A stretch of 64,000 nt of DNA from Pseudomonadota bacterium (GCA_039033415.1 JBCCCR010000007.1:61262-125261); one strand, 5' to 3'. Counted from the first letter of the stretch, positions 3,918 to 47,723 are shown. A program made the numbers and translations. Notes: generated by a model not told the origin, from the letters alone.

Positions 3918-4457
3918 ATGGAAGAGCGTACCGGCGCGTCAAGCAAGGGGGTGCTGCCCCCTGCCGAAGCGGCAGAGCCCGCAGCATCCCTCAACCTCGA
4001 GAAACTCGTACCGTACCGCTTGACCGTTCTGTCAAATTCGCTTGGGGCTAGCGCGATGCGCCTCTATGGCGGCGCGTTTGGACTCCGTAGCGTCACCGAG
4101 TGGCCCATTATCGCCGCTCTCGGTCATCAGGCTCCGCTGACGGCTATCGATATCGCTAAGTCTTCCATGTTCGAGAAAACCCGAGTGGCGCGCGCAGTAC
4201 AGCGATTGATATCGGTTAACCTGGTGGTGGCAAAAGAAGATCCTTCCGACGCGAGAAAATCACTCCTTTGGCTAACGGAAAGTGGCGCTCGCCTTCACGA
4301 CGAGATTGTTCCATATGCGATGCTTCGCAATGAGATCAGCACGGCGACGCTGGACGACGCAGAGCGCCGTCAGCTGGACCACCTGCTTGAGAAGCTAAAC
4401 AAGCAGCTGGCTGCCGTTGAAGGCGTCTCACGGGGCAGCGCAGATGATCGTACGTAG
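3918..4457 (+). CDS. MarR-family transcriptional regulator
   Basis: 179 aa with a winged-helix core (ITAIDIAKSSMFEKTRVARAVQRLISVNLV...DARKSLLWLTESG). AGGAG lies 9 nt upstream of the ATG. Confidence 0.8.
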   Translation: MEERTGASSKGVLPPAEAAEPAASLNLEKLVPYRLTVLSNSLGASAMRLYGGAFGLRSVTEWPIIAALGHQAPLTAIDIAKSSMFEKTRVARAVQRLISVNLVVAKEDPSDARKSLLWLTESGARLHDEIVPYAMLRNEISTATLDDAERRQLDHLLEKLNKQLAAVEGVSRGSADDRT

Positions 4458-4482
4458 CTCATCTCGGGCAACCGGGTCGGCA

Positions 4483-5949
4483 TCATTGCTCGTGAAGCGA
4501 TAAGGCAGGTCGATCGTTCATCGGCCATAGTTCGCGATCCTGCTTGACATAAGGCACGCGACGGAAATCCTGCGTCAGAGCGCCAGGGCCATCGGCGTAA
4601 AGGATCTCGCTGGCGATGGGTGCAAACCCGCTGTAAAAGTGCTGACTGGATTTCACCACAACCACGTCCTGATCAGTCGGATTGATTCCGACGTTGGTGA
4701 AGACCTCGACGCTGAACGCCTGACATCGCAGACTTGCCAGTACAACCTTGACGTTACCTACCTCGATCGCGACACAGTCGCCAAGCCGCTGCGACGCTTC
4801 TCCAGCCTGCTCTGCGTACACGCACAGACCGCAAACTTTCGCCTTGACGTCCAGCGGGTGTCCGGACGTTGGACCCATTTTGCCGCCAACGCGCAGCTGC
4901 AGAGTTGCCCCCAACCCTGCAGCCTTGCAGAGCTGGACCGCAACAGGGTCCCAGAGCGGACCGAGGCAAACCCGGATCGGTTCGCGCCCAAGGAGCTCTC
5001 GAAGTGCATAGGTCGAATCCCCGGGCGCTCCTCCCCCAGGGTTATCCGACGTATCCGCAATCACGATTGGCCCGGCGGCTGAGAATTGCAGTCGCCTGAG
5101 ACAGGCGTCGAGACTTAGGAGTTTTGCGGACGTCTCGCCGCGCATCGCAAACAGTCGGCGCCCCAGCGTTTTTGCAAGCGCTTCTCCCGTGCTACGAGCG
5201 TCGTTGGTGATGACGAGTATGCGGGTTCCGATATCCCGAACATCACCCCAGGGGAAGCCATGCACGATTGAGACCGAAAGAACGTTGTCCTTGCCTTCGA
5301 GGGCTTTCACCTCTTCAACAAATTGCTTCATCGGTCCATCGGTCGTGTGGTAAACGCCGATCATTTGGCAGTCATAGACAGCGCTGCAGGTTTTGATCTC
5401 GCCGCTGGCAATACCCTCCAGGATGTCAAACAGCTCTTCACCGCGTTCCAGGAAATCGGTGTGGGGATACTCCTTGAAAGTGATCACCGCATCTGTTGCG
5501 TCGACCATTTGCGCGGTCAAATGACAATGGGGGTCCAGCTCCAGCCCCACGGCTACGTTGTCGCCAACCATGACTCGGATGCGGCGCATCATATCGCCCT
5601 CACAATCGTCATAGCCATCGGCCACCATGGCCCCATGCATGCTCATGGCGACGACATCAACGGGAAGCGCATCTTCAAGCTGCCCAAGGATTTCGTCCCG
5701 CAACGCCTCGTAGGTCGCCCTGGTTGTAACGCCTGCCGGAAGTGCAAATGCACAGGTACCTTCGACGACCGCCCAGTCTCGTGCTGAAGCCCTCTGCCGC
5801 GCAATCCATGTCGGCGCAGCAAACGAGAGTGGGTGGCTGGGGTGTTCACCTGGTCGATACAGGCAGAATTCTTCGAAACTGCTCAGTGACGTCGGAATTG
5901 GCGAGAACGTATTGGTCTCGGTTCCCAGTGCTGCAACAAACACCTTCAT
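4483..5949 (-). CDS. M81-family metallopeptidase (MlrC-like, microcystinase C family)
   Basis: 488 aa. The N-terminus MKVFVAALGTETNTFSP and the overall length match the MlrC N- and C-terminal domain architecture. Confidence 0.8.
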   Translation of the reverse strand: MKVFVAALGTETNTFSPIPTSLSSFEEFCLYRPGEHPSHPLSFAAPTWIARQRASARDWAVVEGTCAFALPAGVTTRATYEALRDEILGQLEDALPVDVVAMSMHGAMVADGYDDCEGDMMRRIRVMVGDNVAVGLELDPHCHLTAQMVDATDAVITFKEYPHTDFLERGEELFDILEGIASGEIKTCSAVYDCQMIGVYHTTDGPMKQFVEEVKALEGKDNVLSVSIVHGFPWGDVRDIGTRILVITNDARSTGEALAKTLGRRLFAMRGETSAKLLSLDACLRRLQFSAAGPIVIADTSDNPGGGAPGDSTYALRELLGREPIRVCLGPLWDPVAVQLCKAAGLGATLQLRVGGKMGPTSGHPLDVKAKVCGLCVYAEQAGEASQRLGDCVAIEVGNVKVVLASLRCQAFSVEVFTNVGINPTDQDVVVVKSSQHFYSGFAPIASEILYADGPGALTQDFRRVPYVKQDRELWPMNDRPALSLHEQ

Positions 5950-8358: not shown

Positions 8359-8906
8359 AACAATTCGCTATCCACGTGGCGAAGCTTCTGCGTAGCGCGA
8401 GCGCGTTGGTCAATCAAGCCTGCTGGTGGGTGGGTGGCCTATGCTTTGTCGCCATGCTCCTGAGCGTTGGCCTTCAGGTAATTGGGCGGTACCTGGTCTT
8501 CGCGGCGCCGCCTTGGACCGAAGAACTGGCAAGATATTGTATGGTCTGGGGAGGACTGCTTGGCGCAACCGTCGCGTTTTACCGGGAGGAAGATCCCGTC
8601 CTTGTGACGCGCCCAGAACTCTCGTCCAAAACACTGAGCGCGCTTTTGTCACTGGTGCGCGATGCGGCCGTGATCCTATTCCTGCTCCCCGTACTCGTTT
8701 TCAGCCCGACGATTCTGGCGCACCACATGATGCGGCTAACCGAAAGCTTGGGTATCACCAGCGGATACGTGTTTGCGATCGTGCCGATATTTTCGGCCGT
8801 CATACTGTTTCATCTGCTCGCTCGAATATCGGCAAGAGCCCTGGACGGAGTGGGGATGAGACGCAAAGCGACGGTTGAGGGTGGGTCCTCTGGCAGCAAT
8901 CCTTAG
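8355..8906 (+). CDS. dctQ: TRAP transporter small permease subunit (DctQ family)
   Basis: 183 aa with four hydrophobic helices and a WTEELARYCMVW motif typical of DctQ. The GTG start overlaps the dctP stop (GTGA). Confidence 0.75.
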   Translation: MKQFAIHVAKLLRSASALVNQACWWVGGLCFVAMLLSVGLQVIGRYLVFAAPPWTEELARYCMVWGGLLGATVAFYREEDPVLVTRPELSSKTLSALLSLVRDAAVILFLLPVLVFSPTILAHHMMRLTESLGITSGYVFAIVPIFSAVILFHLLARISARALDGVGMRRKATVEGGSSGSNP

Positions 8907-8948
8907 GTTATTCACTAGCCGTCTTCAGCAATCGCATCTGAGGCCCTG

Positions 8949-9926
8949 ATGAAGATTCATACAGAAATCGTTCGATTCCCATTGCAAAAGCCGTTTGCTA
9001 TCACTGGTCGCGAATTCAGGAGCACGGAAACCGTAAGGGTGACCTTGGCAAAGGATGGCGTTGTCGGGCGCGGCGAGGCCGTGGGCTCCTACTATCTCGA
9101 CGAAACACCTGAGACCATGACCCAACAGCTGGAGATAGCCGCCGAAGAAATCGACGGGGGACTGGCAGAATCCCGGGTGCAGACACTTTTGCCACCCGGT
9201 GGAGCCCGCAACGCACTTGACTGTGCGCTTTGGGATTATCAGGCCAAAGCCGCCGGTAAGCGGGTTTGGGAGCTGCTGGCTATTACCCCACGGGCACTTA
9301 GGACGGTATTTACGCTGGGGATAGACAGTGTCGAAACCATGGCCCAGCAGGCTGAGGCGGCACAAGTTTTCTCGCACCTAAAAATCAAACTCAATTCAGA
9401 TCGCCCAATCGAACGACTGGAAATCATTCGCGCGGCCCGGCCGGATGCCAGCCTCATCGTAGACGTCAATCAAGGGTGGACCTTTGAGGAACTCAAGGAA
9501 TACGCACCACACTGTGCCCGCCTTGGTGTGGCTATGATCGAGCAGCCACTGCCGCGAGGCAAAGACCAGGAGCTGGAAGACTTTCGGTCACCGGTCCGGC
9601 TCGGCGCAGATGAATCTTGCCTGCACCTTGGCGAGTTTTCTGAGGCAGCGCAGCGCTATCAGGTTCTGAACATCAAGCTCGACAAGTGCGGTGGTCTGTC
9701 CGAAGGTCTGGCTCTTGTCGAAGCGGCGAAACGGTCTGCCATGCAGGTGATGGTCGGCAACATGATGGGCAGTTCCCTGTCAATGGCGCCAAGTTTCATC
9801 GTTGGTTTACTGAGCGACTTTGTCGACATCGATGGCCCCCTTCTGCTCGCCGACGATATTGATCATGGCCTCACCTACGGCAAGGGTGGCTTGGTACAAC
9901 CACCCGCCGCAGCACTCTGGGGCTGA
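8949..9926 (+). CDS. Dipeptide epimerase (L-Ala-D/L-Glu epimerase-like), enolase superfamily
   Basis: KxK (LKIKLN), DVNQGW, IEQP, ADES and NIKLDKCGG motifs in the order of the MLE-subgroup catalytic and metal residues. Confidence 0.8.
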   Translation: MKIHTEIVRFPLQKPFAITGREFRSTETVRVTLAKDGVVGRGEAVGSYYLDETPETMTQQLEIAAEEIDGGLAESRVQTLLPPGGARNALDCALWDYQAKAAGKRVWELLAITPRALRTVFTLGIDSVETMAQQAEAAQVFSHLKIKLNSDRPIERLEIIRAARPDASLIVDVNQGWTFEELKEYAPHCARLGVAMIEQPLPRGKDQELEDFRSPVRLGADESCLHLGEFSEAAQRYQVLNIKLDKCGGLSEGLALVEAAKRSAMQVMVGNMMGSSLSMAPSFIVGLLSDFVDIDGPLLLADDIDHGLTYGKGGLVQPPAAALWG

Positions 9927-10118
9927 CAGGCTGTTTTCATTCCATCGGATCAAATTCGCGGAGAAGAAAGGGGATTCTCAAACGTCGTGTTTTGGTGCTG
10001 TTTGGACCGCGCGCCAACTCGCCGCGCTCTCTGGGATGAACGCTTACACGAAGGCGACATCGGCTTTCCGAAGCGACCTGGAACTCGATCTGCCCGTTTA
10101 CCGAATCCGATCGTACCT

Positions 10119-12047
10119 TCAGTGACGAATTTGAGCCGCGGCAGAATCCTGAGGGCCCTTTGCGCCGGAGGCTGGGAGCTGATACTGACGCAGGATCTTC
10201 TGAAAATCTGGACGGTCGCGCAGCGAATCAAACTGGGGGCTGATGCGGAACATCGGAAACGCTTCTCCGCGCAGTGATACCGCCAGGCGCAGCGCATTCA
10301 TCGCCTCGTCCGCGCGGCCCAGAGCGCTCAATGCCTCTGCCAACAGACAGGCGCTGGCCGCAAAGGTAGGTCCTTCCCCAGCCTGAAGTCGATTGACCTG
10401 AAACTCCCAAAAAATATCACCCCGATCACGCTCAATGCCACTGACCATCCTGGAATACTTCTCCGCTGACACTCGCTCCTTATATCGCTGTAGGCGCAAC
10501 AGCAGCGCACGTTTGCTATCGCCACTGCGCTGCTGTGCAAACGACCAATACCAATAGAACCAGTCAAACCCTGGACCCTTGTCCTCCAGTGTCTCCATGG
10601 TCGCATTAGCGCTGCCGTATTCACCCGCAGCGGTTTGAACCATGCCTTTGATTCCCAGAAGCAGTGGACTGGCGGGACGCAGCGAAAGCCCGGCTTCAAT
10701 CGTCTGCAGCGCCTGGGAGTGTCGTCCCAGAATGCTTTGAATTTCCGCGAGGTACTGATGTGCATCAACAGCGCTGGGCGAAGCGTCTATCGCGGCCTGA
10801 AAAAGCTTGCCCGCACGTTCAAAATCCCAGTCACGCTGGAAAGCAATTTCGCCTTGAGCCGTCAGGGCCCAAGGGTTTTCAGGGTCCAGCGCGATGGCGT
10901 CCCGTGCCGCGTCCGCAGCGGCTTTGTAACCTCGCTCGCGATCCTCATAACCGTAGCTAACGCGGGCCAGGTGGCTGAGCGCCAGCCCGGCATAAGCGTC
11001 AGCGAAACCCGTGTCGATCCGCACCGCTTTTTCGAAGAGCTGCTGTCCCTGCACAAGACTTTCTGGAGTGCGCTGGCGCCAAAACCACAGTGCTCTGAGA
11101 TACGATTCAAAAGCCTCGGCATTGATCATCGCGTCCTGTTCGCGCGACTCCCAACGCGCCAGACCGGCACGGGTCAGTGACGCCAGATCCCGGATCATCT
11201 GCTGTCGCGTGATGAAGGTCTGCGACTGATCGATTCTGTATTCTGATGACCAGATCAGTTCTTTTGTGGCGATCCTCAGCAGCCTGAGTTCAATCGACAT
11301 CTTGTCGACCTGGCGGTAGAGCCGACCGCTGAGCACCGCGTCTGCACCGGCTTGACCGGCAGCCGTTGCGACCCCCTGCCCGATCTCTTCCTGGGATAAC
11401 AGATAAATCCGAGGAGACTCGAGCCGCGCCAGCTGCGCGGCCACATCGAAATGCAGGCCAGCCAGCGGTTGCTCGGGGCCATCCTCAATCGGTAGTTCAA
11501 AGGGCGCTACCGCCATTGACCTCAGCCCCTGTAGCGGGTGGGCTTGGAGCGCCGGCCCCGCGCTGTCAGGCGACTCGAAAAGAATCCAGCCAGCAAGCGT
11601 TACCGCCAGCATCACCGCAGCGGCCCAGGGCCAGCGTCTGCGTGAAAGGCGATTGGCCGTCTGAATGTTTGGCGCCTCAGGTTGGGCTGTTTCAAGCGCC
11701 TCCACCGGGGCAATAAAGCGGTAACCACGCCGAGGAACGGTTTGAATATATTCGCTGTTTTCTCGCGAATCGCGGAGCGCGGTGCGCAGCAGCGAGATGG
11801 CCCGTGTGACTACGGAATCAGAGAAGTGCTCGCTTCCCCATACCTCGTCCAGCAGCGTGTCTTTGCTGACGGTGCCCCCTGGATGTCGACAGAAATACTC
11901 CAGCAGCGCCATGGTGCGAGGCTCGAGCGTCACCTCCTCGCTGGACCCGTAGAGGCGAAGTGCCTGAACGTCCACCCGCCAGGAACGGATTTGATACTGC
12001 TTTGTCAACGAAAGGAGCCGGGGCCGGATCTGCTGGATGACCCACAA
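10119..12047 (-). CDS. Membrane-anchored winged-helix (OmpR/CadC-type) transcriptional regulator with periplasmic TPR domain
   Basis: N-terminal trans_reg_C-like segment (LEPRTMALLEYFCRH...IQTVPRRGYRF), one TM helix (WPWAAAVMLAVTLAGWILF), then about 450 aa of TPR-like repeats. TTG start with GAGGT 6 nt upstream. Confidence 0.75.
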   Translation of the reverse strand: MWVIQQIRPRLLSLTKQYQIRSWRVDVQALRLYGSSEEVTLEPRTMALLEYFCRHPGGTVSKDTLLDEVWGSEHFSDSVVTRAISLLRTALRDSRENSEYIQTVPRRGYRFIAPVEALETAQPEAPNIQTANRLSRRRWPWAAAVMLAVTLAGWILFESPDSAGPALQAHPLQGLRSMAVAPFELPIEDGPEQPLAGLHFDVAAQLARLESPRIYLLSQEEIGQGVATAAGQAGADAVLSGRLYRQVDKMSIELRLLRIATKELIWSSEYRIDQSQTFITRQQMIRDLASLTRAGLARWESREQDAMINAEAFESYLRALWFWRQRTPESLVQGQQLFEKAVRIDTGFADAYAGLALSHLARVSYGYEDRERGYKAAADAARDAIALDPENPWALTAQGEIAFQRDWDFERAGKLFQAAIDASPSAVDAHQYLAEIQSILGRHSQALQTIEAGLSLRPASPLLLGIKGMVQTAAGEYGSANATMETLEDKGPGFDWFYWYWSFAQQRSGDSKRALLLRLQRYKERVSAEKYSRMVSGIERDRGDIFWEFQVNRLQAGEGPTFAASACLLAEALSALGRADEAMNALRLAVSLRGEAFPMFRISPQFDSLRDRPDFQKILRQYQLPASGAKGPQDSAAAQIRH

Positions 12048-12133
12048 GTTTACCTCGCCCGAGACGCCATTCCATTAGCCGATCCACAGTTCGGTGTCCT
12101 CAGCAACACCGGCAAGGTGTCAACCTCCGCTCG

Positions 12134-13422: not shown

Positions 13423-16400
13423 TTATTCGAATCCGTTGATGAAGATCAACGCCGGCGGTCCGCTGGCGCCCAGATTGATCTGGCGCTGGGTTTCTACCCA
13501 GGTGCCGGTCAAGGTGTCATGCGCCCGCACCGTAATCACCTGCCAGCCCTGTTCCACACCCTGAGCGCTCACGTCCGCGGACCAGCTGTCCGTGCCGCTG
13601 GCGGCCACAAAGTGGCCGTTCGCCAGCGCGACATCGACCCGATCCACGGCCCCGCTGGCGGTTCCCGTGACGCTGACGGTTCCGCTGACTCCAAAATCAG
13701 CACCAGGCGTGCTGATCTGCACAGTCAGCGGGTTATCCGGGCGCGCATCCAGCTGGCGAAGGAAAGCCAGCAGGTCGCTGAAATCGCCGCCGCTCAGGTC
13801 GGCGACCCGGCTGTGAGGCGTCGACCGGCTGACCTGACTGGCCGTGTCGCTGACTCGGATCTCGTCCAGGCCAAACGATCCGCCGTTGTCATACCGAACC
13901 CTGACCGTGTTGCTGCCGCCGCTGAGCTGGATCGGGAGGCTCATTTCTCCCCACTGACGAAACATCCAGTCGTTGGCCAGGGTGCGCGGCGCCTGCACCG
14001 ACTGGTTGGAACCATTGATCGTGAGGGTGAGATTGGCGTCGCCGTAGTTGGCGTGATACCGCATGGTGAGGGTTGCGTCCGTCGCACCCCCAACATTCAC
14101 ATCGAAGGTCACCGCCGATCCGTCATCCATGTTGACGTACTCACCGCCGCGGAGCACCGCCAGGTCATCCACCGCCCAGTGCGATTGAAAGCGGATGTCG
14201 GTGCTGCCGCTCAAACTACCCTGCTCCGCCTGCCAGGCCCGATCGCCGGTCGACAGCAGCGCCAGCTCGAGCGTCGGCTGAGAGCCATCGTGGAGGTAAG
14301 ACGGGGTGTCCCAGATTCCGTTGAGGGTGGGCACGTCAATGCCCGCCAGGTTGCCGCCCAGACGTCCACCCGAATCGGTGCCGGTAGTGCCCAGGTCTTC
14401 CAACGCCAACGTGAGGTCGGTCCGCTGCACCCGCTCGGCACCGCTGTGGCAGTTGGCGCAGCCCTGGCTGGCGAAGATGTCGCGCCCGCGCTGAGCCGCC
14501 GAGGTCAGCCCGCCGTCGCTGCGGCGTTGTGGCGATCGGGGCACGGTCTGGGGGGTCAGCGAGGCAACGTACGCGGCCAGCTGGTCAAGCTCCGCATTTA
14601 ACCCGGCTTTGGGTGTGCCGAGGGTATTGCTGGTCTGATTGAACTGCGGTTCGGTGAGAAAGCCCGTGCCGCCAAACGCGCCACGAATATCGTTTTCAAA
14701 GTCCTGGATTTCGTCAAAGTTGGCGCTCCAGTGCACCAGACCATGACCGGTACCGCTTCGTCCCCGCAGGTCGGTGGTGTTGCGCACACCCTCGCCGCGG
14801 CCGCTAAAGTCCCACGAACGGCCGTCGTGGCCGCCGTCGATATGGCAGGTTGCGCAGGTCATATAGCCTTCGCCGCTCATGCGCTCATCAGCGGCGTTGT
14901 AGAAAATTTCTTTGCCCTGCTTCACGTCGACCGTCAGCGCCTCCCGGCCCACCAGATCCCGGGTAGAACTGCTGAAAGACGTGCTCCCGGTGCTCAGCAA
15001 GCTGCCCACATTGACCCGGCTGACCTGACGGTCCAGGAAGTTATGGCTCAGCAGTATGTCTGTGCCTGGCTCCAGCAGCAGGGACTGTGGCGCCAGGCCC
15101 ACCCCGATACGGGAGATCACGCTGGATACGCCGGTAAAGCCAGCGTCGATCATCAGCGTATCCATCACCAACACCACGTTACTGCCCTGCAGACTGACCC
15201 AAGCGTAGTCACCCTGCGGTGAGAACTCGATGTCGCTGGGCTGCTCGCTGTTGTCGAGGTCGCGCCGCAGCTCCTCCAGTTCGGTGCCACTCGCCAGATC
15301 GATCTGCGCCACCATGGCCCGCACCGTATTGTCCTGATCGAGATCTTCGCCGCTCAGGTAAACCCCACGGGTGGTGTTGTCCTTCTTCGCCGCCACCCAG
15401 GCCCGGCTGCCGTCGGGGGTGATGCTGACCGAGGCCAGATAGTTGGGCACACCTCGACCGTCAAAACGTTCGTCAGGCCCCCACTGCTGAGCCAGCGTGA
15501 TCGTTCGGTCCAGATTCAGGCCGTTAGCCGACACGGAGACATCCCAGATTTCCGCCCGGTCTTCGGGCGATATAAATCGGGTGACCAGCGCCCGATTTCC
15601 GCCGTCCGCTAACGCGATGACTCGAGCTGTAGGGCCCAGCGCCAGGCGGTCCAGCTCCGTGACCCCGGCCGCGTCAAAGAGAGCCAGCTCGCCGCTGCCG
15701 TACAGGGACACCAGCATACGGTTGTTCTGAGACCGCGCGACCACCCCGAAAGGCGCCGAGCCATAGCCGGTGTCGACGGTGGCGACACGCCGGCCGTCAC
15801 TCTCCAACACAATCAGCTGATCGGCATCAAAACAGCTGATCCAGGCGCGACCCGCTGCGTCGAACGCAACGCTTCGCGGGTCAGCGCAGGTGCGGTATTC
15901 AGCAACCCGCTGATGATTGCCGTCTCGAAGAACCGCGACGGTGCTGTTGTCCGGATTGATCACCCAGATCCGACCGTCGGGGGCCCGTGCGAGATGGCGC
16001 GACCGTCGATGGTCACCCGGCGTGATGTTGTTGAGGACCGCGACGCCCGTTGTTCCGGTTGCTACGGCAGACTGGGCATCACGTACCTGAACCGAGATGC
16101 CAAAGTGACCAACCTCCGCATAGCTGTGGCTGGCCTGGGCGGCCGACCCCCAGTCGGTGGGGGTCGAGCCATCACCGAAGTCGAATCGGTATTCCAGCGA
16201 TCCACCGTCGGGATCGACGGCAGACACGTTGACCTGCAGTGAGGTGCCAGGCGATACGGGTGATGAGCTGGTACTGACGCTGTTGATCACCGGACGGGCG
16301 TTTCCGCTTAGGGCACTGCCGGTCGAGAAGGTGAAAGAGTAGCCCTGCATGCCGTTGCCCACCGCATCTTCGATGCCATCGTCGACCAGGGTGACCTGGT

Positions 16401-17775
16401 ACGTGGTGTTATCAGCCAGCGGCTGTTCAGGAACAATCGACAGGATGTCGTTCGACGAGAACCACAGCTCCGTCGCCAGCGGCGAGCCAAGGCTTCCACC
16501 GTTGACCGGCTGGAGAAGGACGGTTGAGCTGTTGATGGTTTCTGACTTCAGCGTCTCGTGGATCAGCACCTGAATCGGAAAGTCGGTTGGATAGCCGGTC
16601 TCGCCGTCAGCCGGCCGGTGGTAGCCGACGAACGGACCACGGTTGTCCGGGGTCTCCTGATGAACCCAGATCGACATGCCGGTGCCACAGTGGTTTCCAC
16701 CCCCGGGCACCGAACAGGTACCGTTGATATAGATTCCGCCGGTGACCACCAGGTTGCCAACAGGGAGCTGCCACTGGCTGGTGTCGATGCGTTCGCCGCT
16801 GCGATTGTTGGCCTCCTCGTCGAGTTCCAGCACCACGTCGAAGGTACGCATATCGATTTTGTAGCGCTCGCTGAACGCAAACTCATCCTGGAACTGGGCG
16901 TAGTTCAGATTGCCGGCGAGCGGTACCGAGGCCACCAGCTGGAGGTCGGTGGGATCGGTGGCGTCGACCACCTGGAAGCCACCGACCGGGTTGTCGTGCG
17001 GGAAAAAGAAATAGAGCCGGCCGTTCAGCCCAAACGGGTCAGGCCAGTATCCGCCGACGCTGTTCTGGGTGAGGACGTCCAGCAGCACCGGGTTGGAGGG
17101 GTCGGAAATATCGTACGAAGCGATGCCAGATCGGCTTTGATCCGAGGCGTAGTAAAGCGTGGTGCCAAAGATAAATGGGTGCCCGATGACGCCGGTCTGC
17201 CCGACCGGGTCGAAGACGGCATTCGGCGTAGCGCCATAGGGTAGGTCCAGATACAGCTCTGCCGGCTCGTCGGTTTCGCCATAGGACCAGTAGTTGGTCG
17301 CGCCCCACGGGACGCTCATGCCCCCATGGGTCCAGCCGAGCATCCGAAAGTTCACGTTGTTTGTTTCGACCGGCGTGTTGCCGTCTACTCGAAATGCCCG
17401 CCCTGAGCTGAGAACGTCGCCGGTCTTGATAAACCCGTGGGCCATGAAGCCGTGGCGGGTCACCAGTGAATCGCCGTCGTTGTCACCCGTGAGCGGCGTG
17501 ATCGACACGCGGCTAGGATTGGCGGGATCCGAGAGGTCCCAAGCGCGCACAATCCAGTCGCCCGGGGGGCCGCCAGGAATCTCAGGGAGGGTAAAAAGAT
17601 AGTCGCCGTGCCAGGCGATCACCGCCAGGCGACCCATCTCCGGAGCCACAGGACCTGCCAGCAACACGCCGGCCTGCCCAGGTCTCGAAATATTCGGGAC
17701 CCCTTGCGACCAAGCTGGGGACAAGCAGCAAAGCTGCAGCGCAAGCAGCGGGACCAGAAAACGAGACTTTTTCAT
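13423..17775 (-). CDS. 1450-aa secreted multidomain protein: LVIVD-like propeller, Ig-like, PKD, second beta-propeller, di-heme cytochrome c peroxidase/MauG-like module, CBM6/35-like module, Ig-like tail
   Basis: Signal peptide MKKSRFLVPLLALQLCCLSPAWSQG. Repeats of the type YDISDPSNPVLL and VVDATDPTDLQLV. PKD signature DPDGGSLEYRFDFGDGS. Two CxxCH motifs (CATCH at 14842-14856, CANCH at 14446-14460) plus PSYLHDGSQPTLE typical of bacterial CCP/MauG. CBM-like block ending FGLDEIRV. Confidence 0.85.
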   Translation of the reverse strand: MKKSRFLVPLLALQLCCLSPAWSQGVPNISRPGQAGVLLAGPVAPEMGRLAVIAWHGDYLFTLPEIPGGPPGDWIVRAWDLSDPANPSRVSITPLTGDNDGDSLVTRHGFMAHGFIKTGDVLSSGRAFRVDGNTPVETNNVNFRMLGWTHGGMSVPWGATNYWSYGETDEPAELYLDLPYGATPNAVFDPVGQTGVIGHPFIFGTTLYYASDQSRSGIASYDISDPSNPVLLDVLTQNSVGGYWPDPFGLNGRLYFFFPHDNPVGGFQVVDATDPTDLQLVASVPLAGNLNYAQFQDEFAFSERYKIDMRTFDVVLELDEEANNRSGERIDTSQWQLPVGNLVVTGGIYINGTCSVPGGGNHCGTGMSIWVHQETPDNRGPFVGYHRPADGETGYPTDFPIQVLIHETLKSETINSSTVLLQPVNGGSLGSPLATELWFSSNDILSIVPEQPLADNTTYQVTLVDDGIEDAVGNGMQGYSFTFSTGSALSGNARPVINSVSTSSSPVSPGTSLQVNVSAVDPDGGSLEYRFDFGDGSTPTDWGSAAQASHSYAEVGHFGISVQVRDAQSAVATGTTGVAVLNNITPGDHRRSRHLARAPDGRIWVINPDNSTVAVLRDGNHQRVAEYRTCADPRSVAFDAAGRAWISCFDADQLIVLESDGRRVATVDTGYGSAPFGVVARSQNNRMLVSLYGSGELALFDAAGVTELDRLALGPTARVIALADGGNRALVTRFISPEDRAEIWDVSVSANGLNLDRTITLAQQWGPDERFDGRGVPNYLASVSITPDGSRAWVAAKKDNTTRGVYLSGEDLDQDNTVRAMVAQIDLASGTELEELRRDLDNSEQPSDIEFSPQGDYAWVSLQGSNVVLVMDTLMIDAGFTGVSSVISRIGVGLAPQSLLLEPGTDILLSHNFLDRQVSRVNVGSLLSTGSTSFSSSTRDLVGREALTVDVKQGKEIFYNAADERMSGEGYMTCATCHIDGGHDGRSWDFSGRGEGVRNTTDLRGRSGTGHGLVHWSANFDEIQDFENDIRGAFGGTGFLTEPQFNQTSNTLGTPKAGLNAELDQLAAYVASLTPQTVPRSPQRRSDGGLTSAAQRGRDIFASQGCANCHSGAERVQRTDLTLALEDLGTTGTDSGGRLGGNLAGIDVPTLNGIWDTPSYLHDGSQPTLELALLSTGDRAWQAEQGSLSGSTDIRFQSHWAVDDLAVLRGGEYVNMDDGSAVTFDVNVGGATDATLTMRYHANYGDANLTLTINGSNQSVQAPRTLANDWMFRQWGEMSLPIQLSGGSNTVRVRYDNGGSFGLDEIRVSDTASQVSRSTPHSRVADLSGGDFSDLLAFLRQLDARPDNPLTVQISTPGADFGVSGTVSVTGTASGAVDRVDVALANGHFVAASGTDSWSADVSAQGVEQGWQVITVRAHDTLTGTWVETQRQINLGASGPPALIFINGFE

Positions 17776-17963
17776 CCCGTAAACCTAGCAAAAACGCTTG
17801 TTTAGAAGTGTGACCCAGGTCGAGGCCTGTTGGGTCCTTTAGCTGTATCAAATCGCCCTAGCCTTTGGATTTGACGGGGTTCGGGCTGACGAAACCAGAC
17901 ACCGGGTCAGAACCGCCAATTTGCGCTTCAGCTCACCCAGCAACGGCAAGACCTCTCAGCCGC

Positions 17964-20102
17964 TCAGCGAACCACCAGCAGCTCGAAGCTGTCGCTGAAC
18001 AAAAAGTCGGGCACTACCTCCGTCAGCCCGGCGTCGAACGACACCTCCAGGACCGCACCGATGTTTTGAGGCGGATTTAACGGCACGGTCGAATCCCAGC
18101 CCGGAACGGCAATCAGCAGCTCATCTCCACCAAACCCGTTGAAGTTGCCACGGGCAATGACCTGCCCAAATCGATCGCCCGGGTTGCCGGTGAACCCAAA
18201 ATCGTCCAACACAAAGTCCGTCGTCGCGACCGGGGTGTTCGGACCGATCCCCAGGAGACTTCGTCCGGTCAGCCGAAGACTACCGCGGTCGAGATTGAAG
18301 CCAGGTTCCGTTACCCAGAGTTCCCCTCGAAGTGCCCGATTGAGCGTGTCGGCATAGGTCACCTGCCACCCGAAGTTAGCCTGCGTCTCCTCGGTAGGCG
18401 GCAGGAAAACCTCCGGCAGCATGGCGTTGAGAACCTGGAAAGAGGACGACAGGGTCACCTGGACCGCGGCGCCCACGTCGGGGTCGAGCACAGCAGTCAG
18501 GTCGCTGTCGGGCGCCCCCGCCGCGAGGCTGGGAAATTGGTCCGTCGCGTCGTAGTCGGTGCCTACCGCCAATGCCTTACCGAAACCGTTAATCTCCAGG
18601 CCAGGCTCACTGATGTCTGCAGCCACCAGGTGGTCGCTGCTCGCCTGATCCATGAACTGGCTGAACGCGTCACCGGGCAACAGGTGAACGGCGCCGACGC
18701 GGCCATTGAATTCGTCCGCATTGGCGCCGATGAACAGCTGGTCTGGCTGTTGCGGCCCTCGTGATGCCACCGTCAACGATCCTCCGAAGCGATCCCCGGC
18801 TTCCGCCACGCCGGCAATCAGCGATCGATCCTGATGCCAGACACGCCCACCCGGGTTATCGAAACGGGTTTCCAGGCCACCGGCGCTCCCAAACAGCAGA
18901 AACACAGCGCCCGCTCCGTTTTGGCCATTGATACTGGCGCCCGGCGTGCCGATCGCCAGGTCGATACACTGCCGAAACCGATCGCCTGCCTGAACACTGT
19001 CCCGGTCAAAATTTCCCGCCACCAGGCTGGCGCCAAATCCATCGCCACCGGCGGAGCTGCCGTTGATGTCCCCGGTGTCCCGATCGATTCTGACCGTGGA
19101 CGTCGGGGCGAGGCCGACGGCAGAGCCGTTGATCACATATACAGCGCCCGCGTTGAAGAAGGTTGTGTCGCTGGCTGGCGCCCCGACCGCCAGGTCATCA
19201 AAGCCATCGCAGTTGAAGTCGCCCGCTGCCAGCGCTTCACCGACCTGCTCCAGGGGCTGCTGCGACGGCGACAGGGCTTGCGCGCCGGCACTCGTCAGAC
19301 CGGAGAGCGAACCGTAAGCGACCATCACCTGGCCCCGATCCACACCTGCAGCGGTATCTTCCAGCGGGACCCCGATTGCAGCGTCGTCGCGGCCGTCACC
19401 GTTGAAATCACCGACGGCTAGCGAAGTGCCAAAGCCGTCATCTGCCCCGTTATCCTCACCACTCACAAGATCGCTCTGCACCCACAGCACGCCACGGGGG
19501 TTCTCGATGTGGTTGACCTGTCGGAGCGAGACGTCATCCCACAGCACCTGCACGGCTTCGCCGGTCTCGGCAAAATCCAGGACCAAGGAGACTCTCACCG
19601 ACCGTTGCCCGGTGGTCGCGCGAAGCAAACTCCAATTGCCGTTTATCGACGAGCCAATCTCACGAGGCCCGCCGTCACCGATCTCCGCTAGAACGCCGCT
19701 GGTGCAGCTAGCGCCGGAAAAAGACTCAAGCGCCAGCCGGGGAGAGGCATTGCCAACGCTCCGCAAGTATCGGGCTGTAACCAGATACGAGAGTCCGCCC
19801 GAAGTGGCCGGCAAGTTGATACAGTCCGAGGTCAACGCTGCGCGGTCGCCACTGGCGCTCACACGCATCGTAACGGCTCCCAGCGCGCTCGTCGGAAAGC
19901 CGGTACTCGCCTGGTAGAACACCTCACCTCCGCCCTCCGTCGACGCCGTCCATCCGCCACCCGGCGTCTGAGTTGGAGAGAGTGCAAACTCGCCGTTGGG
20001 CACCAGGTTTTCGCTGTCAGAACGGAGCAACGTGCCGGCCTGCGAGGCCCCGGCTGTAAGCAGCATGGCCGATACCAAAAAATGACTTATCCAAGGATTC
20101 AC
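17964..20102 (-). CDS. Secreted FG-GAP / integrin-alpha-like repeat protein
   Basis: Repeats GDFNGDGRDDAAIGVP, GDFNCDGFDDLAVGAP, GNFDRD and GNFNGFGGDELLIAVPG. I prefer the GTG at 20102 (AAGGAG 7 nt upstream), giving signal peptide NPWISHFLVSAMLLTAGASQA. The track ORF starts at 20171. Confidence 0.8.
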   Translation of the reverse strand: MNPWISHFLVSAMLLTAGASQAGTLLRSDSENLVPNGEFALSPTQTPGGGWTASTEGGGEVFYQASTGFPTSALGAVTMRVSASGDRAALTSDCINLPATSGGLSYLVTARYLRSVGNASPRLALESFSGASCTSGVLAEIGDGGPREIGSSINGNWSLLRATTGQRSVRVSLVLDFAETGEAVQVLWDDVSLRQVNHIENPRGVLWVQSDLVSGEDNGADDGFGTSLAVGDFNGDGRDDAAIGVPLEDTAAGVDRGQVMVAYGSLSGLTSAGAQALSPSQQPLEQVGEALAAGDFNCDGFDDLAVGAPASDTTFFNAGAVYVINGSAVGLAPTSTVRIDRDTGDINGSSAGGDGFGASLVAGNFDRDSVQAGDRFRQCIDLAIGTPGASINGQNGAGAVFLLFGSAGGLETRFDNPGGRVWHQDRSLIAGVAEAGDRFGGSLTVASRGPQQPDQLFIGANADEFNGRVGAVHLLPGDAFSQFMDQASSDHLVAADISEPGLEINGFGKALAVGTDYDATDQFPSLAAGAPDSDLTAVLDPDVGAAVQVTLSSSFQVLNAMLPEVFLPPTEETQANFGWQVTYADTLNRALRGELWVTEPGFNLDRGSLRLTGRSLLGIGPNTPVATTDFVLDDFGFTGNPGDRFGQVIARGNFNGFGGDELLIAVPGWDSTVPLNPPQNIGAVLEVSFDAGLTEVVPDFLFSDSFELLVVR

Positions 20103-20270
20103 CAGAGCGCTCCTTCCTTCGCGGTGCGTTGAACTTGATCTGATAACGACGCAATCGCGAAAAGTGCACACACCCCGCTGCGAGGGTGCCGGGAAGGACC
20201 CGTTGGAAAACGAAACGGTGCTCCGAGCTCGGCCTAGATCACCGCGCGAGCCGGCGCTAAGGCACGGGTG

Positions 20271-31981: not shown

Positions 31982-32806
31982 CTACTGGTTCACGTAGCCG
32001 ATCGGCTCCTGGCCCGGCGTAATGACAAACATGAGCGGCCAGTACTTGCCGGTAACCCACAGCCTGCCGTCTTCCGCCAGCGCAATGCCATTGAGAACAT
32101 CCACCCGCCTTCCGGCGATATGCTCCGGCTTGAGAAGCCCGGTGAGATTGATCAAGCCACGCACTTGGCCGCTGGCGGGATCGATACGGGCAATGTAATT
32201 CGTTTGCCAGACGTTGGCGAGGATCTCGTCGTTTACCCATTCAAGCTCGTTGAGGTAAGGCAGCGTCTTCTTGCCCAGCTTCACCGTGATGCGCCGTTGC
32301 TCCTCAAAGGTTTCAGGATCCAGGAACCGCAGCTCCGACGTGCCGTCACTCATGATCAGTGACGTTCCATCATGCGTGAGGCCCCAGCCCTCCCCGCCAT
32401 AGCTGAAGGTTTCCTGCAGAGCGAACGACTCGAGCGCCCACACGTATCCGGTGCGCTTTCGCCAGCTCAGGCCCAGCAACCGGTTCTGCCAGGAGACGAT
32501 GCCCTCGCCGAACACGCCTGAGGGAAAGTCTTCAACCCTTATGACCCGACCGGTCTCAGGATCAACTTTCCGAATGGTCGATTTACCAACCATGCCGGTG
32601 CTTTCAAACAGGAACCCATCATTGAAAAAAAGGCCTTGGGTGAACGCGGCCGGATCATGAGGATAGGTCTGATGCAGGTTGTAGCCAAAGACCGGAACAC
32701 CCTGCGCGTGGGCGCTCAAGCCGGCCACACCTGCGACCGCAACTAACACGCATTGCAGCCACCTACGCAGCTTGTGGGTTTGGGTCAAGGGCCTGCTCAG
32801 GTACAT
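31982..32806 (-). CDS. Glutaminyl-peptide cyclotransferase (beta-propeller plant/bacterial type)
   Basis: YPHDPAAFTQGLFFNDGFLFESTG...IRKVDPETGRV matches the glutamine cyclotransferase family. Signal peptide after the Met at 32806 (AGGAAA upstream). Confidence 0.8.
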   Translation of the reverse strand: MYLSRPLTQTHKLRRWLQCVLVAVAGVAGLSAHAQGVPVFGYNLHQTYPHDPAAFTQGLFFNDGFLFESTGMVGKSTIRKVDPETGRVIRVEDFPSGVFGEGIVSWQNRLLGLSWRKRTGYVWALESFALQETFSYGGEGWGLTHDGTSLIMSDGTSELRFLDPETFEEQRRITVKLGKKTLPYLNELEWVNDEILANVWQTNYIARIDPASGQVRGLINLTGLLKPEHIAGRRVDVLNGIALAEDGRLWVTGKYWPLMFVITPGQEPIGYVNQ

Positions 32807-33099
32807 GGGGTTTCCTAAACTGCCAACGGCCTGCGGAGTTTCGATTAAGAGGCCGGACTCCGCAAGCGTTGTCCTTATGACACACCTCAAGCAATTCCGT
32901 TCAGCGACTTAAATTGCGGTGCTGCAGCTTACGGAGCAAGTCTTGGATCGTCAGCCGCATCTCAAACAGGATCCTCAGGTTCCGGTTAAAACCGTTCCGC
33001 GAAGCAAAATCGGTGTGCTGGATCTGATCATGCGGCAAATCAATGTCCAGTTTTGTACTAACGTTACGCGATATAGGCCAGGAAACAGGGAGACTGGAA

Positions 33100-35109
33100 A
33101 TGATGGAAGCATTTCGGCGAAAGGCACGGACACGGGTGTTGGGGATCGATCGGGGGACGCATGGCAGCGTTTCCGCGGCTGGCTGGCTGGCAGTATTGCT
33201 AGCGTTGGCCGGTGCAGCGCGGGCGCAAACAATCGGCGAGCTGGCCGTCTTTGGCGACAACGTTGCGGACCCGGGCAATATCCCAGCGCTCCTGGAGGCC
33301 GGCAACCAGGCAGGACTCGGCCCGGTTGACACCAATTTCCCGCCCTCACCGCCCTACTTCGGCAATCGCTACTCCAACGGACCGGTTGCGGCTGAACTGC
33401 TGCCCAGCCTTCCGGGGATCGAAGCTGAATCCGTTGTGAATTTGGCGGTTGGCAACGCGTTTTCCGCTCAGCTGCCGGTCAGCCTGGCCGGTGGTGTGCT
33501 GATCGGCAACGGCAGCTCGATTCCTGGGCCCATCGGCCGGGGACTGGCCGCGCTCAACGAAACTGACATCACCAGCCGGGTAAACGCCTACCTCAGCAGC
33601 CGGCCACAGTTTGCGCCGGATGATCTGATGCTCATCTACATGAGCGCCAACGACGGCGCGCTCGCGCTAAATACGATCGGCCTGACAGGACTGACGGGGG
33701 CTGAGGCGCAAAACCTGATTGTCCAGGGTGCAACGGCAAACGCCAGAAACACCGTCGCCGCGGCAGGTCAGCTGGTCGCCGCCGGAGCCCAACAGGTGGT
33801 TTTGGCCAACCTGCCGGACATCGGTGCGACACCCGCGGCGGCGGCCGGGGGCCTGGCCGGCGTCGCCGCTGCCAGCGGCTTCAGCCAGGTGGCGAACGAC
33901 GCCCTCGCTCAGGGTGCGGCTCAGCTGGCCACCGACAGCGGCGCCGTTATCACCGTCTTTGACAGCTTCACGCTGCTCAACGACATCACCGCAAACCCGG
34001 GACGCTACGGGCTGACCGATACCACCAACCCCTGCCTCGCGGTTCCCAGCTGTGTGGGAGACCCGGGCCAAGCAGATCAATTTCTTTTCTGGGACAGCTT
34101 TTTCCCCACCGCTCGCGTCCAGTCGATAGCCGCAGCGGCGCTGGCTGACACCATCAACGCGCCTAAGACGCTGGCGTCGCAGGCGGAGATAACCCGCTAC
34201 GCGGCCGAAAAATTTGCGCAAAGCCTACTCTCCGACCTGGACCGGCGAGGCGCTGAACAAGCCCCCGCCGGCTGGCGACTGCGCTTAGCCTATGATCGGT
34301 TTGACTGGCAGCGAGACGGCGAAACGTTTGCGTTCGGTTATGACGCGCAGCTCGACCGGGTCACACTCGCCGCCGAGTTCATAGGCAGCGAAATGACCGC
34401 GGGGCTCGCGCTGAGCAGCGACCGAGGAGAAGTCGACCACCGCGATATCGCCGCAAGCCACGATGTCGACAGCCTTCGCTTCGGCGCCTTCCTGGCGAGA
34501 CATGGCGAAAACTGGTCGATTGGCGTAGCGGTGCATTTCGCGGACGAGGAGCTGGACAACATTCGCCGCGTTACGGGCGTCGCGGGCCAGATTGCCACCG
34601 GAGAAAGTGACGGAGACAGCCTTTCGCTGCTGCTGCAGATGCAGCGCAACTACGATTGGAACCGCTGGCGACTGGCGCCAACCCTGCGCCTGGGCTACAG
34701 CGAAAGCGAGCTGGATGAGTACCTGGAAACCGGCGCCGTGGCCATGAACCAGCGGGTGGGTGACCGGCGTGCAACCAACAACTTTGCCGAAGTTGGGATC
34801 AGCGCCTCGTCGGCGTGGTCGACACAGGACGGCGGGGGTTGGCGGTTACGTCCGCTCGCCAGCCTCTTCTACCGCAGTCAGCTCGGCAATCGCAGCCAGG
34901 AGATCAACAGCCGGCTGGCGACCGTGCAGGAGGTGGTGCGGACATTCAGCATCGACGCGCCCGATGACGATTACTGGCGTCTGGCGCTGGCGCTCGAGGC
35001 GGGCCTCAGCGAGAGGTTGAGCCTTCAGCTGGGTGGAACGCTTGAGGAGGGCGCCAACCGGCTCGACGGCTACAGCGCCGGCCTGAGCTTGCAATACCAG
35101 TGGAAGTAG
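33100..35109 (+). CDS. Autotransporter with SGNH/GDSL-lipase-like passenger (EstA-like architecture), catalytic residues substituted
   Basis: Long signal peptide ending AGAARA-QT. Block I reads FGDNVADPGN, block II YSNGPV, block III SAND, block V FWDSFFPT. The C-terminal ~270 aa is a beta-barrel-like alternating pattern ending LSLQYQWK. Confidence 0.8.
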   Translation: MMEAFRRKARTRVLGIDRGTHGSVSAAGWLAVLLALAGAARAQTIGELAVFGDNVADPGNIPALLEAGNQAGLGPVDTNFPPSPPYFGNRYSNGPVAAELLPSLPGIEAESVVNLAVGNAFSAQLPVSLAGGVLIGNGSSIPGPIGRGLAALNETDITSRVNAYLSSRPQFAPDDLMLIYMSANDGALALNTIGLTGLTGAEAQNLIVQGATANARNTVAAAGQLVAAGAQQVVLANLPDIGATPAAAAGGLAGVAAASGFSQVANDALAQGAAQLATDSGAVITVFDSFTLLNDITANPGRYGLTDTTNPCLAVPSCVGDPGQADQFLFWDSFFPTARVQSIAAAALADTINAPKTLASQAEITRYAAEKFAQSLLSDLDRRGAEQAPAGWRLRLAYDRFDWQRDGETFAFGYDAQLDRVTLAAEFIGSEMTAGLALSSDRGEVDHRDIAASHDVDSLRFGAFLARHGENWSIGVAVHFADEELDNIRRVTGVAGQIATGESDGDSLSLLLQMQRNYDWNRWRLAPTLRLGYSESELDEYLETGAVAMNQRVGDRRATNNFAEVGISASSAWSTQDGGGWRLRPLASLFYRSQLGNRSQEINSRLATVQEVVRTFSIDAPDDDYWRLALALEAGLSERLSLQLGGTLEEGANRLDGYSAGLSLQYQWK

Positions 35110-38776: not shown

Positions 38777-39031
38777 ATGAAACTAGCAGCCATTGCTTTG
38801 CTGTTGACGGTTGTGCCAGGGGCTCTGGCTCAGTCTTCCGGCGGCGATTTTGAAATTACCCGCTCCGTCATCGGGGCTGGCGGAAGCAGCTCGGGGGGAG
38901 ACTTCACCCTCACCGGGACCATTGGCCAGCCGGTGGTCGCCACCTCACAGGGCGGTCAGTTTTCGCTGTCTGGCGGCTTCTGGACTCCGGGCCAGCGCCC
39001 CGACCTCCTGTTTAGCAACGGATTTGAGTAA
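38777..39031 (+). CDS. Small secreted Gly-rich repeat protein (84 aa) ending in LLFSNGFE
   Basis: Signal peptide MKLAAIALLLTVVPGALA-QS. Three copies of GG[DQ]Fx[IL][TS] (GGDFEIT, GGDFTLT, GGQFSLS), then GGFW. Promoter and SD lie upstream. Confidence 0.6.
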   Translation: MKLAAIALLLTVVPGALAQSSGGDFEITRSVIGAGGSSSGGDFTLTGTIGQPVVATSQGGQFSLSGGFWTPGQRPDLLFSNGFE

Positions 39032-47060: not shown

Positions 47061-47638
47061 CAGGCGTTTTCCAGGATGTGGCTTACCCAGGCGCGGGCGC
47101 GCTTGAGCTGCCGCTGGACCGTCCGATCGCTGGTGCCCCGAAGCTCGGCAATCTCAGCGCTGCTGAAGCCGCCAAAACAGGATAGATCGATGACTTCGGC
47201 CAGCTCCTCGTTGTCCTGCTCCAGCTGGTTCAGCGCCTCATCCAGGCGCAGAACGCGGTGTGGATCATTCAGGTCGGCCAGCAGGTTGCTGTGCAGCGAT
47301 TCCACCTGCAGCCCACCGCCGCGTTTGGACGCCATTCGGGCACGCCACGTGTCGATGACAATCTGACGCATCACCCGGCAGGCGACGGCAAAAAAATGTC
47401 CGCGGTTGCGAAACTCCGCGCTGTTGGCTGCCGACAGTTTTTCGAATGCTTCGTGGACCAGCGACGTGGTCTGCAGTTCGTTGCGAACGCTCGAACGCCG
47501 GAGCTGCGACTGAGCGAGCGTTTTGAGTTCTTCGTAAAGCAAAGACACAACGTGGTTGAGCGCCGCCTCCCCGCCTTCGGCCTGGGCTCTCAGTAGCTGG
47601 GTGACCTCTCCCGGCGAAACGGGGCTTTGGCTGGACAT
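47060..47638 (-). CDS. ECF-type sigma-70 family sigma factor (kinase-associated type)
   Basis: EVTQLL...LYEELKTLAQSQL...LQTTSLVHEAF (region 2) and a region 4 HTH FGGFSSAEIAELRGTSDRTVQRQL. GGAG lies 6 nt upstream of the ATG at 47638. The stop shares 1 nt with the kinase ATG (TGATG). Confidence 0.85.
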   Translation of the reverse strand: MSSQSPVSPGEVTQLLRAQAEGGEAALNHVVSLLYEELKTLAQSQLRRSSVRNELQTTSLVHEAFEKLSAANSAEFRNRGHFFAVACRVMRQIVIDTWRARMASKRGGGLQVESLHSNLLADLNDPHRVLRLDEALNQLEQDNEELAEVIDLSCFGGFSSAEIAELRGTSDRTVQRQLKRARAWVSHILENA

Positions 47639-47723
47639 GTTCGACTCCGCAGCCGGCTGACCAAAATCGCGTGAATTCCAGTGTCGAGGGTCGTGCAAAG
47701 CCTGTCAAATGGCCGGGCTCAAC

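Follow-up and report, generated by a model that had tools for sequence, protein, structure and literature searches.

The 64,000-nucleotide stretch of Pseudomonadota bacterium DNA considered here (GCA_039033415.1, JBCCCR010000007.1:61262-125261), hereafter the window, encodes three predicted secreted proteins that end in nearly the same short peptide, and this C-terminal tail is the subject of the present analysis. The three proteins (cargos 1 to 3) and their tails are located in Table 1. Translation of the three open reading frames (ORFs) returns the C-termini reported in an initial annotation of the same DNA: ...GPPALIFINGFE-TAA for cargo 1 (in a longer excerpt ...GASGPPALIFINGFE-TAA), ...VPDFLFSDSFELLVVR-TGA for cargo 2 (...EVVPDFLFSDSFELLVVR-TGA) and ...RPDLLFSNGFE-TAA for cargo 3 (...GQRPDLLFSNGFE-TAA). 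That annotation described the three proteins as otherwise unrelated in domain content and as exported by the general secretory (Sec) pathway. The first description is borne out. Cargo 1 is a multidomain haem/propeller protein containing Big_5, PKD, beta-propeller, di-haem CCP/MauG/RoxA-like, CBM6/35 and Ig-like regions (Pfam, NCBIfam), cargo 2 is an FG-GAP propeller, and cargo 3 is made up of a signal peptide, two Gly-rich units, GGxFxLxG(T)IGQ (GGDFxLTGTIGQ) and GGxFxLxGGFW (GGQFSLSGGFW), and the tail. The second holds without reserve for cargos 1 and 3, whose signal peptides are clear; the N-terminus of cargo 2, with a signal peptide ending ...LLTAGASQA, is weaker within the window (...HFLVSAMLLTAGASQA/G), and signal peptides are clear in all of its orthologues (P0218-P0221, P0271).

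Table 1. Location of the three tail-bearing proteins in the window, with their tails and signal peptides.
Feature	Coordinates	Strand	Basis or remark
Cargo 1, secreted multidomain protein, 1450 amino acids	13423..17775	-	ORF and translation; Pfam/NCBIfam domains
Sec signal peptide of cargo 1, MKKSRFLVPLLALQLCCLSPAWSQ	17704..17775	-	Read from translation; predicted cleavage site
Tail of cargo 1, LIFINGFE	13426..13449	-	Linker GASGPPA before; TAA directly after
Cargo 2, FG-GAP repeat (propeller) protein	17964..20171	-	Likely start GTG at 20102
Tail of cargo 2, PD-FLFSDSFE	17982..18011	-	Followed by variable LLVVR (17967-17981), then TGA
Cargo 3, secreted Gly-rich protein, 84 amino acids	38777..39031	+	Signal peptide 38777-38833
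Tail of cargo 3, PD-LLFSNGFE	38999..39028	+	TAA directly after

The tail is not general to exported proteins, since six other signal-peptide proteins of the window lack it: a TRAP-type binding protein (assigned by eye only), a glutaminyl cyclase, an autotransporter esterase (33043..35109, ending ...LQYQWK), an M19 dipeptidase, a DUF3313 lipoprotein and a CocE/NonD hydrolase. Read-through of cargo 1 into a downstream domain can be rejected, because a convergent gene ends 11 nt past its stop codon. Cargo 1 is itself a very unusual protein, with two CxxCH haem sites (MauG/CCP/RoxA-like) and a weak similarity to hydrazine synthase gamma. A search of 5.8 billion proteins with its C-terminal 301 residues found a single relative, P0092, which ends ...LVFADGFEP. 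For cargo 3 the sole library match was to PamT, a pilus tip protein of the candidate phyla radiation; membership was rejected, the match lying in the Gly-rich repeats and scoring 28.7 bits against a cut-off of 240.

A Protein-Level Motif Beyond Chance

A six-frame scan of the 64 kb with [LIVFM][LIVFM]F-x-[ND]-[GS]-F-E gives three matches, at 13426-13449(-), 17982-18005(-) and 39005-39028(+), each of which lies 0-5 residues ahead of a stop codon and ends a Sec-signal protein. The looser pattern F.[ND][GS]FE finds no further place in the same scan. Given the residue composition of the 55 ORFs in the window, one would expect 0.011 matches over six frames and 2.8e-5 within 0-5 residues of a C-terminus, where three are observed (P(>=3) ~4e-15); the view that a common terminal position is hard to explain by chance, already voiced in the initial annotation, is thus given a figure. 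The codons used differ at synonymous sites among the three coding stretches (e.g., ttg atc ttc atc aac gga ttc gaa and ctc ctg ttt agc aac gga ttt gag), and the motif is therefore a feature of the protein and not a DNA repeat. The C-terminal motif is real and lies far beyond chance.

Position and Spread Beyond the Window

The motif had been defined too narrowly and its scope drawn too tightly around the window's genome. Its last residue may be E or D and an upstream D is part of it, so that the consensus is D-x-[ILV]-F-x-[DN]-[GS]-F-[ED], followed by 0-12 residues. This tail ends dozens of unrelated exported proteins in Lysobacterales metagenome-assembled genomes (MAGs) and in soil, sludge and marine metagenomes, and its host range is Lysobacterales together with other high-GC environmental bacteria. 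The loci that carry relatives of cargo 3 belong to Lysobacterales or Gammaproteobacteria MAGs, two of them close to the window (L001 at 99% and L002 at 96% identity), and all motif matches in these loci fall 0-6 residues from a stop codon. They include two new cargos, one at L003 (17507..18397, ending ...NLFRNGFEGDD and a stop) and one at L005 (4997..6520, ending ...DVFEDGFE and a stop), the latter directly downstream of the small gene.

Enrichment at C-termini over internal positions, which the initial annotation proposed as a check, is found in two samples. In 1.16 Mb of related and metagenomic DNA, all 18 of the 18 non-seed matches in ORFs of at least 80 amino acids lie within 12 residues of the stop. 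Among 150 FG-GAP representatives (183,590 residues), chosen by FG-GAP similarity and not by their ends, there are seven matches, every one of them terminal (at most 12 residues from the end), with no internal match, although this 12-residue zone makes up only 2.2% of the residues.

Viral and metagenome contigs were also scanned for DNA encoding F-x-D-G-F-E and then a stop or Trp codon (TTCNNNGACGGNTTCGARTRR); the pattern fixes TTC and GAC codons, so that genomes of low GC content and variants with N, S or D are under-represented. The metagenome contigs gave at least 120 matches. Among the 120 listed, 64 end ORFs that are long or cut by the contig edge, 24 have a stop after a short ORF and 32 carry Trp in place of the stop. 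The 64 long-ORF ends share preferences at positions left free in the pattern, with I, L, V or M before the first F in 61 and D at position -3 in 31; neither preference was seen in the short-ORF-stop or Trp classes of the listed matches. In the viral control, none of 16 matches sits at the end of a long ORF, and all stop matches follow ORFs of 11 codons or fewer, so the viral matches are as chance gives.

The complete metagenome ORFs with a tail come from contigs of 59-73% GC and encode a broad range of proteins, so that the tail occurs independently of the domain upstream of it. Choice-of-anchor Q beta-helix proteins account for four of the ten metagenome cargos scanned, with the tail placed 3-10 residues past the Q domain. 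Further cargos are a delta-60-repeat protein, a BNR/F510_1955-like glycosylhydrolase, an M23 peptidase, an AmpH-like serine hydrolase and an FG-GAP/XAC2610-like protein; reprolysin-like and matrixin-like metalloproteases and a Kelch protein were assigned by eye only. Co-occurrence with Sec signals is also supported: a signal peptide is predicted for 32 of the 38 ORFs with a tail but for only 159 of 437 (36%) other ORFs at the same loci (Fisher p = 1e-8). These calls come from a crude rule, and the tail ORFs that it misses are edge-cut or have alternative starts.

A conserved family of ~190 amino acids, found in viral (IMG/VR) contigs (L016, L023) and in metagenomes (L033, L049), ends ...C(A/V)G(R/S)PDLFADGFEWGL(G/R)RWS... 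before its stop and thus carries an extended tail.

Conservation and Exchange With Other C-Terminal Elements

Within families the motif is kept while its surroundings change. Cargo 3 has ~90 relatives, of which 47 end in [ILV]F.[DN][GS]FE with 0-7 residues after it; F79, F83 and E84 show little or no variation in an alignment of 35 homologues. A search of 1.84 billion representatives found orthologues of cargo 2 at 85% (P0218) and at 44-47% identity (P0219-P0221, P0271). Close to their C-termini all five retain P-[DG]-x-L-F-[SK]-D-[SG]-[FY]-E, and the linker ahead of the motif and the 2-10 residues trailing it vary. The motif is therefore under purifying selection.

Between lineages, the position of the tail is taken by other elements. 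The small family of cargo 3 (P0001-P0091, ~90-140 amino acids), with its signal peptide, two GGxFxLxG units and swappable C-terminal module, is in effect a “choice-of-anchor” module in its own right. Beside the 47 FE tails, 11 of its members have YLP-box-like ends ([VI]YLPL[VI]x[RK]), among them P0072, which ends in a YLP-box (NF050076), and 22 end in CYCPxxWPLK. Planctomycetota members carry a GC-type dockerin (P0050, NF041540, 48 bits), a Dockerin_1 domain (P0083) or ...WLCYCPxGWPLK instead of the tail. The GC-type dockerin (NF041540) and dockerin type I (PF00404) are putative C-terminal anchoring modules, and their presence at this position in P0050 and P0083 suggests that the C-terminal slot of the small family is a docking slot. 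A dockerin is, however, a folded Ca-binding domain of ~55-67 residues, whereas the tail is a linear peptide of 8-10.

The same exchange is seen in choice-of-anchor Q proteins. A profile built from the Q domain and the tail picked up 1,912 proteins, and in the best 120 of these (P0093-P0212) the Q domain is followed by a tail ending in D (...IFADGFD, 37 proteins) more often than in E (21) and sometimes in N (3), by a YLP-box-like end in six, by a transmembrane (TM) anchor in P0188 only, and by nothing in the rest. A Q-domain protein encoded on a Diaphorobacter plasmid is annotated with IPTL-CTERM. Among the FG-GAP representatives, too, both FE tails and YLP-box-like tails are found at the C-terminus. 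Thus, in three independent families the tail holds the slot that is filled elsewhere by a YLP-box, a GC-type dockerin or an IPTL-type TM anchor.

Comparison With Known Sorting Signals

No model in NCBIfam (release 20) or Pfam matches the tail at E <= 10, which answers the question left by the initial annotation of whether a described sorting-signal model already covers it. The closest comparison is with the YLP-box, represented in NCBIfam by the YLPL-tail models NF050076 (sort_motif_YLP) and NF053834 (ultrashort_CTERM, “YLP-box putative sorting motif”). Both elements are ultrashort (~8-11 residues), sit at the extreme C-terminus of signal-peptide proteins and have no TM helix. They also share the slot after the small Gly-rich protein, the choice-of-anchor Q domain and FG-GAP repeats, and the tail is, in kind, what the YLP-box is: ultrashort, strictly terminal, associated with a signal peptide, free of a TM segment and exchangeable with anchors. 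Their sequences, however, are unrelated, the YLP-box ([VI]YLPL[VI]x[RK]) being hydrophobic and basic and the FE/FD tail (D-x-Φ-F-x-D-G-F-[ED]) acidic and aromatic. At E <= 10, the FE/FD tails, whether from the window's three proteins or from metagenome proteins, are matched by neither NF050076 nor NF053834, whereas YLPLVxR controls score 19.6-21.6 bits against a cut-off of 15. The one named YLP-box match is an Anaerolineae MAG, while the named FE-tail loci are Lysobacterales or Gammaproteobacteria. The FE/FD tail thus differs from the YLP-box in sequence and lineage and is a member of no described family; ultrashort C-terminal putative sorting motifs are so far represented in NCBIfam only by the uncharacterised YLP-box. 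Two superficially similar ends in the window were rejected as YLP-boxes, neither having a model match: “...LTLPLVR” of an S15/CocE hydrolase, which is the end of the CocE/NonD domain, and “LLVVR” of cargo 2.

The tripartite signals (PEP-CTERM/exosortase, IPTL-CTERM, GlyGly-CTERM/rhombosortase and LPXTG/sortase) resemble the tail in being C-terminal on Sec-exported surface or secreted proteins and in occurring after choice-of-anchor domains (the IPTL-CTERM Q homologue, and the TM anchor of P0188). Unlike them, the tail has neither a hydrophobic helix nor a basic cluster, and the protein ends 0-12 residues past the motif. In the window the proteins end 0-5 residues past it, with no NCBIfam match to PEP-CTERM, IPTL-CTERM, GlyGly-CTERM or MYXO-CTERM, and no LPXTG-like motif with TM segment and basic tail is present in their sequences or matched by an NCBIfam model. 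The initial annotation had set the tail apart from such signals, and also from the beta-signal of outer-membrane proteins, on similar grounds, and both distinctions stand. The beta-signal and the C-terminal domain of the type IX secretion system (T9SS) share with the proposed role of the tail that they are C-terminal elements read by envelope machinery. The beta-signal, however, ends in an aromatic residue on a beta-barrel, whereas the tail ends in E, D or a short extension on soluble multidomain cargos. The T9SS domain is a beta-sandwich of 70-100 residues, as against 8-10, and no match of the TIGR04183 type (Por_Secre_tail) was obtained for the window proteins (E <= 0.1) or for ten metagenome cargos (E <= 0.001). 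Type I secretion does not fit either: the tail proteins have Sec signal peptides, and the domain scans revealed no RTX domains in them.

The peroxisomal targeting signal PTS1 (-SKL) and KDEL are eukaryotic C-terminal peptides read by dedicated receptors. Like the tail they are very short and end unrelated cargo, but they belong to another domain of life, have other sequences and depend strictly on a free C-terminus; the analogy is conceptual only and implies no homology. A motif search of the PDB returned chance matches only (the N-terminus of ArtA toxins and a phage baseplate protein) and no solved structure with the tail, and literature searches for the motif strings, “YLP-box” and “ultrashort C-terminal” found no relevant paper.

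Proposed Function of the Tail

What, then, could so short a peptide do at the end of so many unrelated exported proteins? The tail is probably a lineage-specific, ultrashort sorting or anchoring tag, which an envelope factor would read in trans after Sec export. A C-terminal tag was also the reading of the initial annotation, and it gains support from terminal enrichment, association with Sec signals and replacement of anchors in homologues; this last, the choice-of-anchor exchange, is the main argument that the tail is functional. In such a scheme, Sec would carry the protein across the inner membrane and the signal peptide would be removed. The tail, presented on a short Pro/Asp-containing linker, would then be bound in trans by a dedicated envelope component, which would sort the tagged protein to the cell surface or retain it there. 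The AlphaFold predictions appear to fit a flexible linear motif: the small protein has a mean predicted local distance difference test score (pLDDT) of 57, with the tail below 50, and in a Q-domain fragment the domain reaches 78-85 and the tail, modelled as a short unpacked helix, 64-71.

Several observations weigh against a dedicated tag. The AlphaFold models are of modest quality, and the YLP-box and GC-type dockerin with which the tail is compared are themselves putative anchors only. Clustering of 664 neighbouring ORFs, from ~1.2 Mb of sequence context in all, revealed no recurrent protease, transpeptidase, transporter or other candidate reader beside the tail genes, which extends to many loci the earlier remark that no processing enzyme is adjacent; a reader, if there is one, is encoded elsewhere. 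The motif is once internal, in a 1176-residue S8 peptidase (L151, 13769..17299(-)), where ...SADTIFAHGFENAAAVPG... lies 210 residues before the end and the MAM/LamG-like domain that follows starts with a similar string, ILFDDDLESGTSGWTH (ILFDDDLESGTSGW). It occurs once at a mature N-terminus, as the extended form DAVFADGFEWGDAGDWS right after the signal peptide of a beta-helix protein (L094, - strand, ~4039-4600 of the reverse strand). As many as 12 residues may trail it, and extended C-terminal forms such as ...DGFESGDTTAWSSQIP, ...DGFEYGNTSAWSAANP and ...DGFEWGLGRWSWAS, each before a stop, are found. The motif might then be a more general strand or linker element, and the tail may derive from, or act like, an exposed beta-strand element. 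Given these non-terminal and extended forms, recognition cannot depend on a free carboxylate.

As to how a tag read in trans would act, non-covalent docking or retention at the surface is tentatively preferred; functionally, the tail would then correspond to the GC-type dockerin and the YLP-box. A transient signal for translocation across the outer membrane seems unlikely, and a signal for covalent processing or attachment improbable. To our knowledge, the choice of soluble proteins for export across, or retention at, the outer membrane of Gram-negative bacteria is poorly understood, and type II secretion has no known linear signal. It is conceivable, if rather doubtful, that the tail addresses proteins to an undescribed post-Sec pathway, in which a linear peptide, read by hitherto unrecognised machinery, would suffice for folded periplasmic proteins to cross the outer membrane or be fixed there; in that case Proteobacteria would have their first known short linear signal by which soluble proteins are exported across, or retained at, the outer membrane. 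A conserved tail of 8-10 residues, common to dozens of unrelated secreted enzymes, would offer a handle on the missing reader or sorting machinery, and a simple rule for annotating exported or surface proteins in the uncultured Lysobacterales that abound in soils and marine habitats. It might also serve as a portable tag for surface display or secretion. With the FE/FD tail, the YLP-box class would gain a second independent member, strengthening the case for ultrashort C-terminal sorting motifs as a general phenomenon.

Alternative Explanations

The alternative that survives best, although its probability is low, is that the tail acts in cis, as a cap or terminal strand which stabilises or folds beta-rich extracellular domains and has no partner in trans. 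Many cargos are indeed beta-propellers or beta-helices, the motif resembles the first strand of the MAM/LamG-like domain in the L151 peptidase, and the motifs between domains in that protein and at the mature N-terminus of L094 could be read in the same way. Against this, the folds that precede the tail are unrelated, one of them being a Gly-rich module of 45 residues, and variable Pro-rich linkers separate it from them. It is not packed on the preceding domain in the AlphaFold models, and homologues of other lineages either have no tail or carry an anchor in its place.

A proteolytic or quality-control signal is less probable still. Here the motif would be a site for a periplasmic or extracellular protease (of PDZ type, for maturation, or as a degron), leading to trimming or degradation. 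PDZ proteases such as Prc, CtpA and DegS have C-terminal peptides as their classical ligands; the motif is exposed and close to the C-terminus, and its variable trailing residues could be a removable stub. PDZ ligands, however, normally need a hydrophobic free C-terminus, whereas the tail is acidic and often 2-12 residues longer, and the clustering of neighbours linked no protease gene to the tail genes. The choice-of-anchor pattern also favours anchoring over turnover.

That the tail is an evolutionary remnant is very improbable; on this view a jelly-roll or sorting domain once lay downstream, and its first strand has persisted by inertia after the rest was lost. The extended forms (...DGFESGDTTAWSSQIP, ...DGFEYGNTSAWSAANP) and the similar string that begins the MAM/LamG-like domain could be taken as traces of such a domain, but a leftover would decay and not remain invariant, and the motif is kept in orthologues of 44-47% identity whose neighbouring positions drift and recurs at the ends of many unrelated families. 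Chance, composition or a DNA-level repeat, for which the shortness of the motif is the sole point in favour, is practically negligible given ~3e-5 C-terminal matches expected in the window against the three seen, the synonymous differences among the three copies, a viral control without long-ORF ends and the conservation of unconstrained flanking positions.

Gene Neighbourhood and Other Features of the Window

The only recurrent neighbours of the tail genes are pairs of an extracytoplasmic function (ECF) sigma factor and a Ser/Thr kinase, and GGDEF proteins. One such pair, a Sigma70_ECF protein with a TPR-containing Ser/Thr kinase, is present in the window (44199-47704(-)) and others at the unrelated loci L065, L137 and L148, within a few kb of tail genes; this could reflect a regulatory linkage or the mere abundance of such pairs. 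The small gene at L001-L004 lies in conserved housekeeping synteny without a constant partner, among genes recognized by eye from N-termini as msrA, a DCC-type thiol oxidoreductase and NADP-dependent isocitrate dehydrogenase.

Elsewhere in the window, a region of ~1.2 kb (8906-10119) contains short ORFs only and has an atypical composition. Scans of the window for tRNAs and Rfam families were empty, this region included, and it may represent a long regulatory stretch upstream of a winged-helix/TPR regulator (10119-12074(-)). Between the tail genes lie a GDSL-lipase autotransporter (EstA-like, 33043-35109(+)) and a secreted glutamine cyclotransferase (31985-32806(-)), which show that, for its exported proteins, the organism has type V secretion and N-terminal pyroglutamate formation in use as well.

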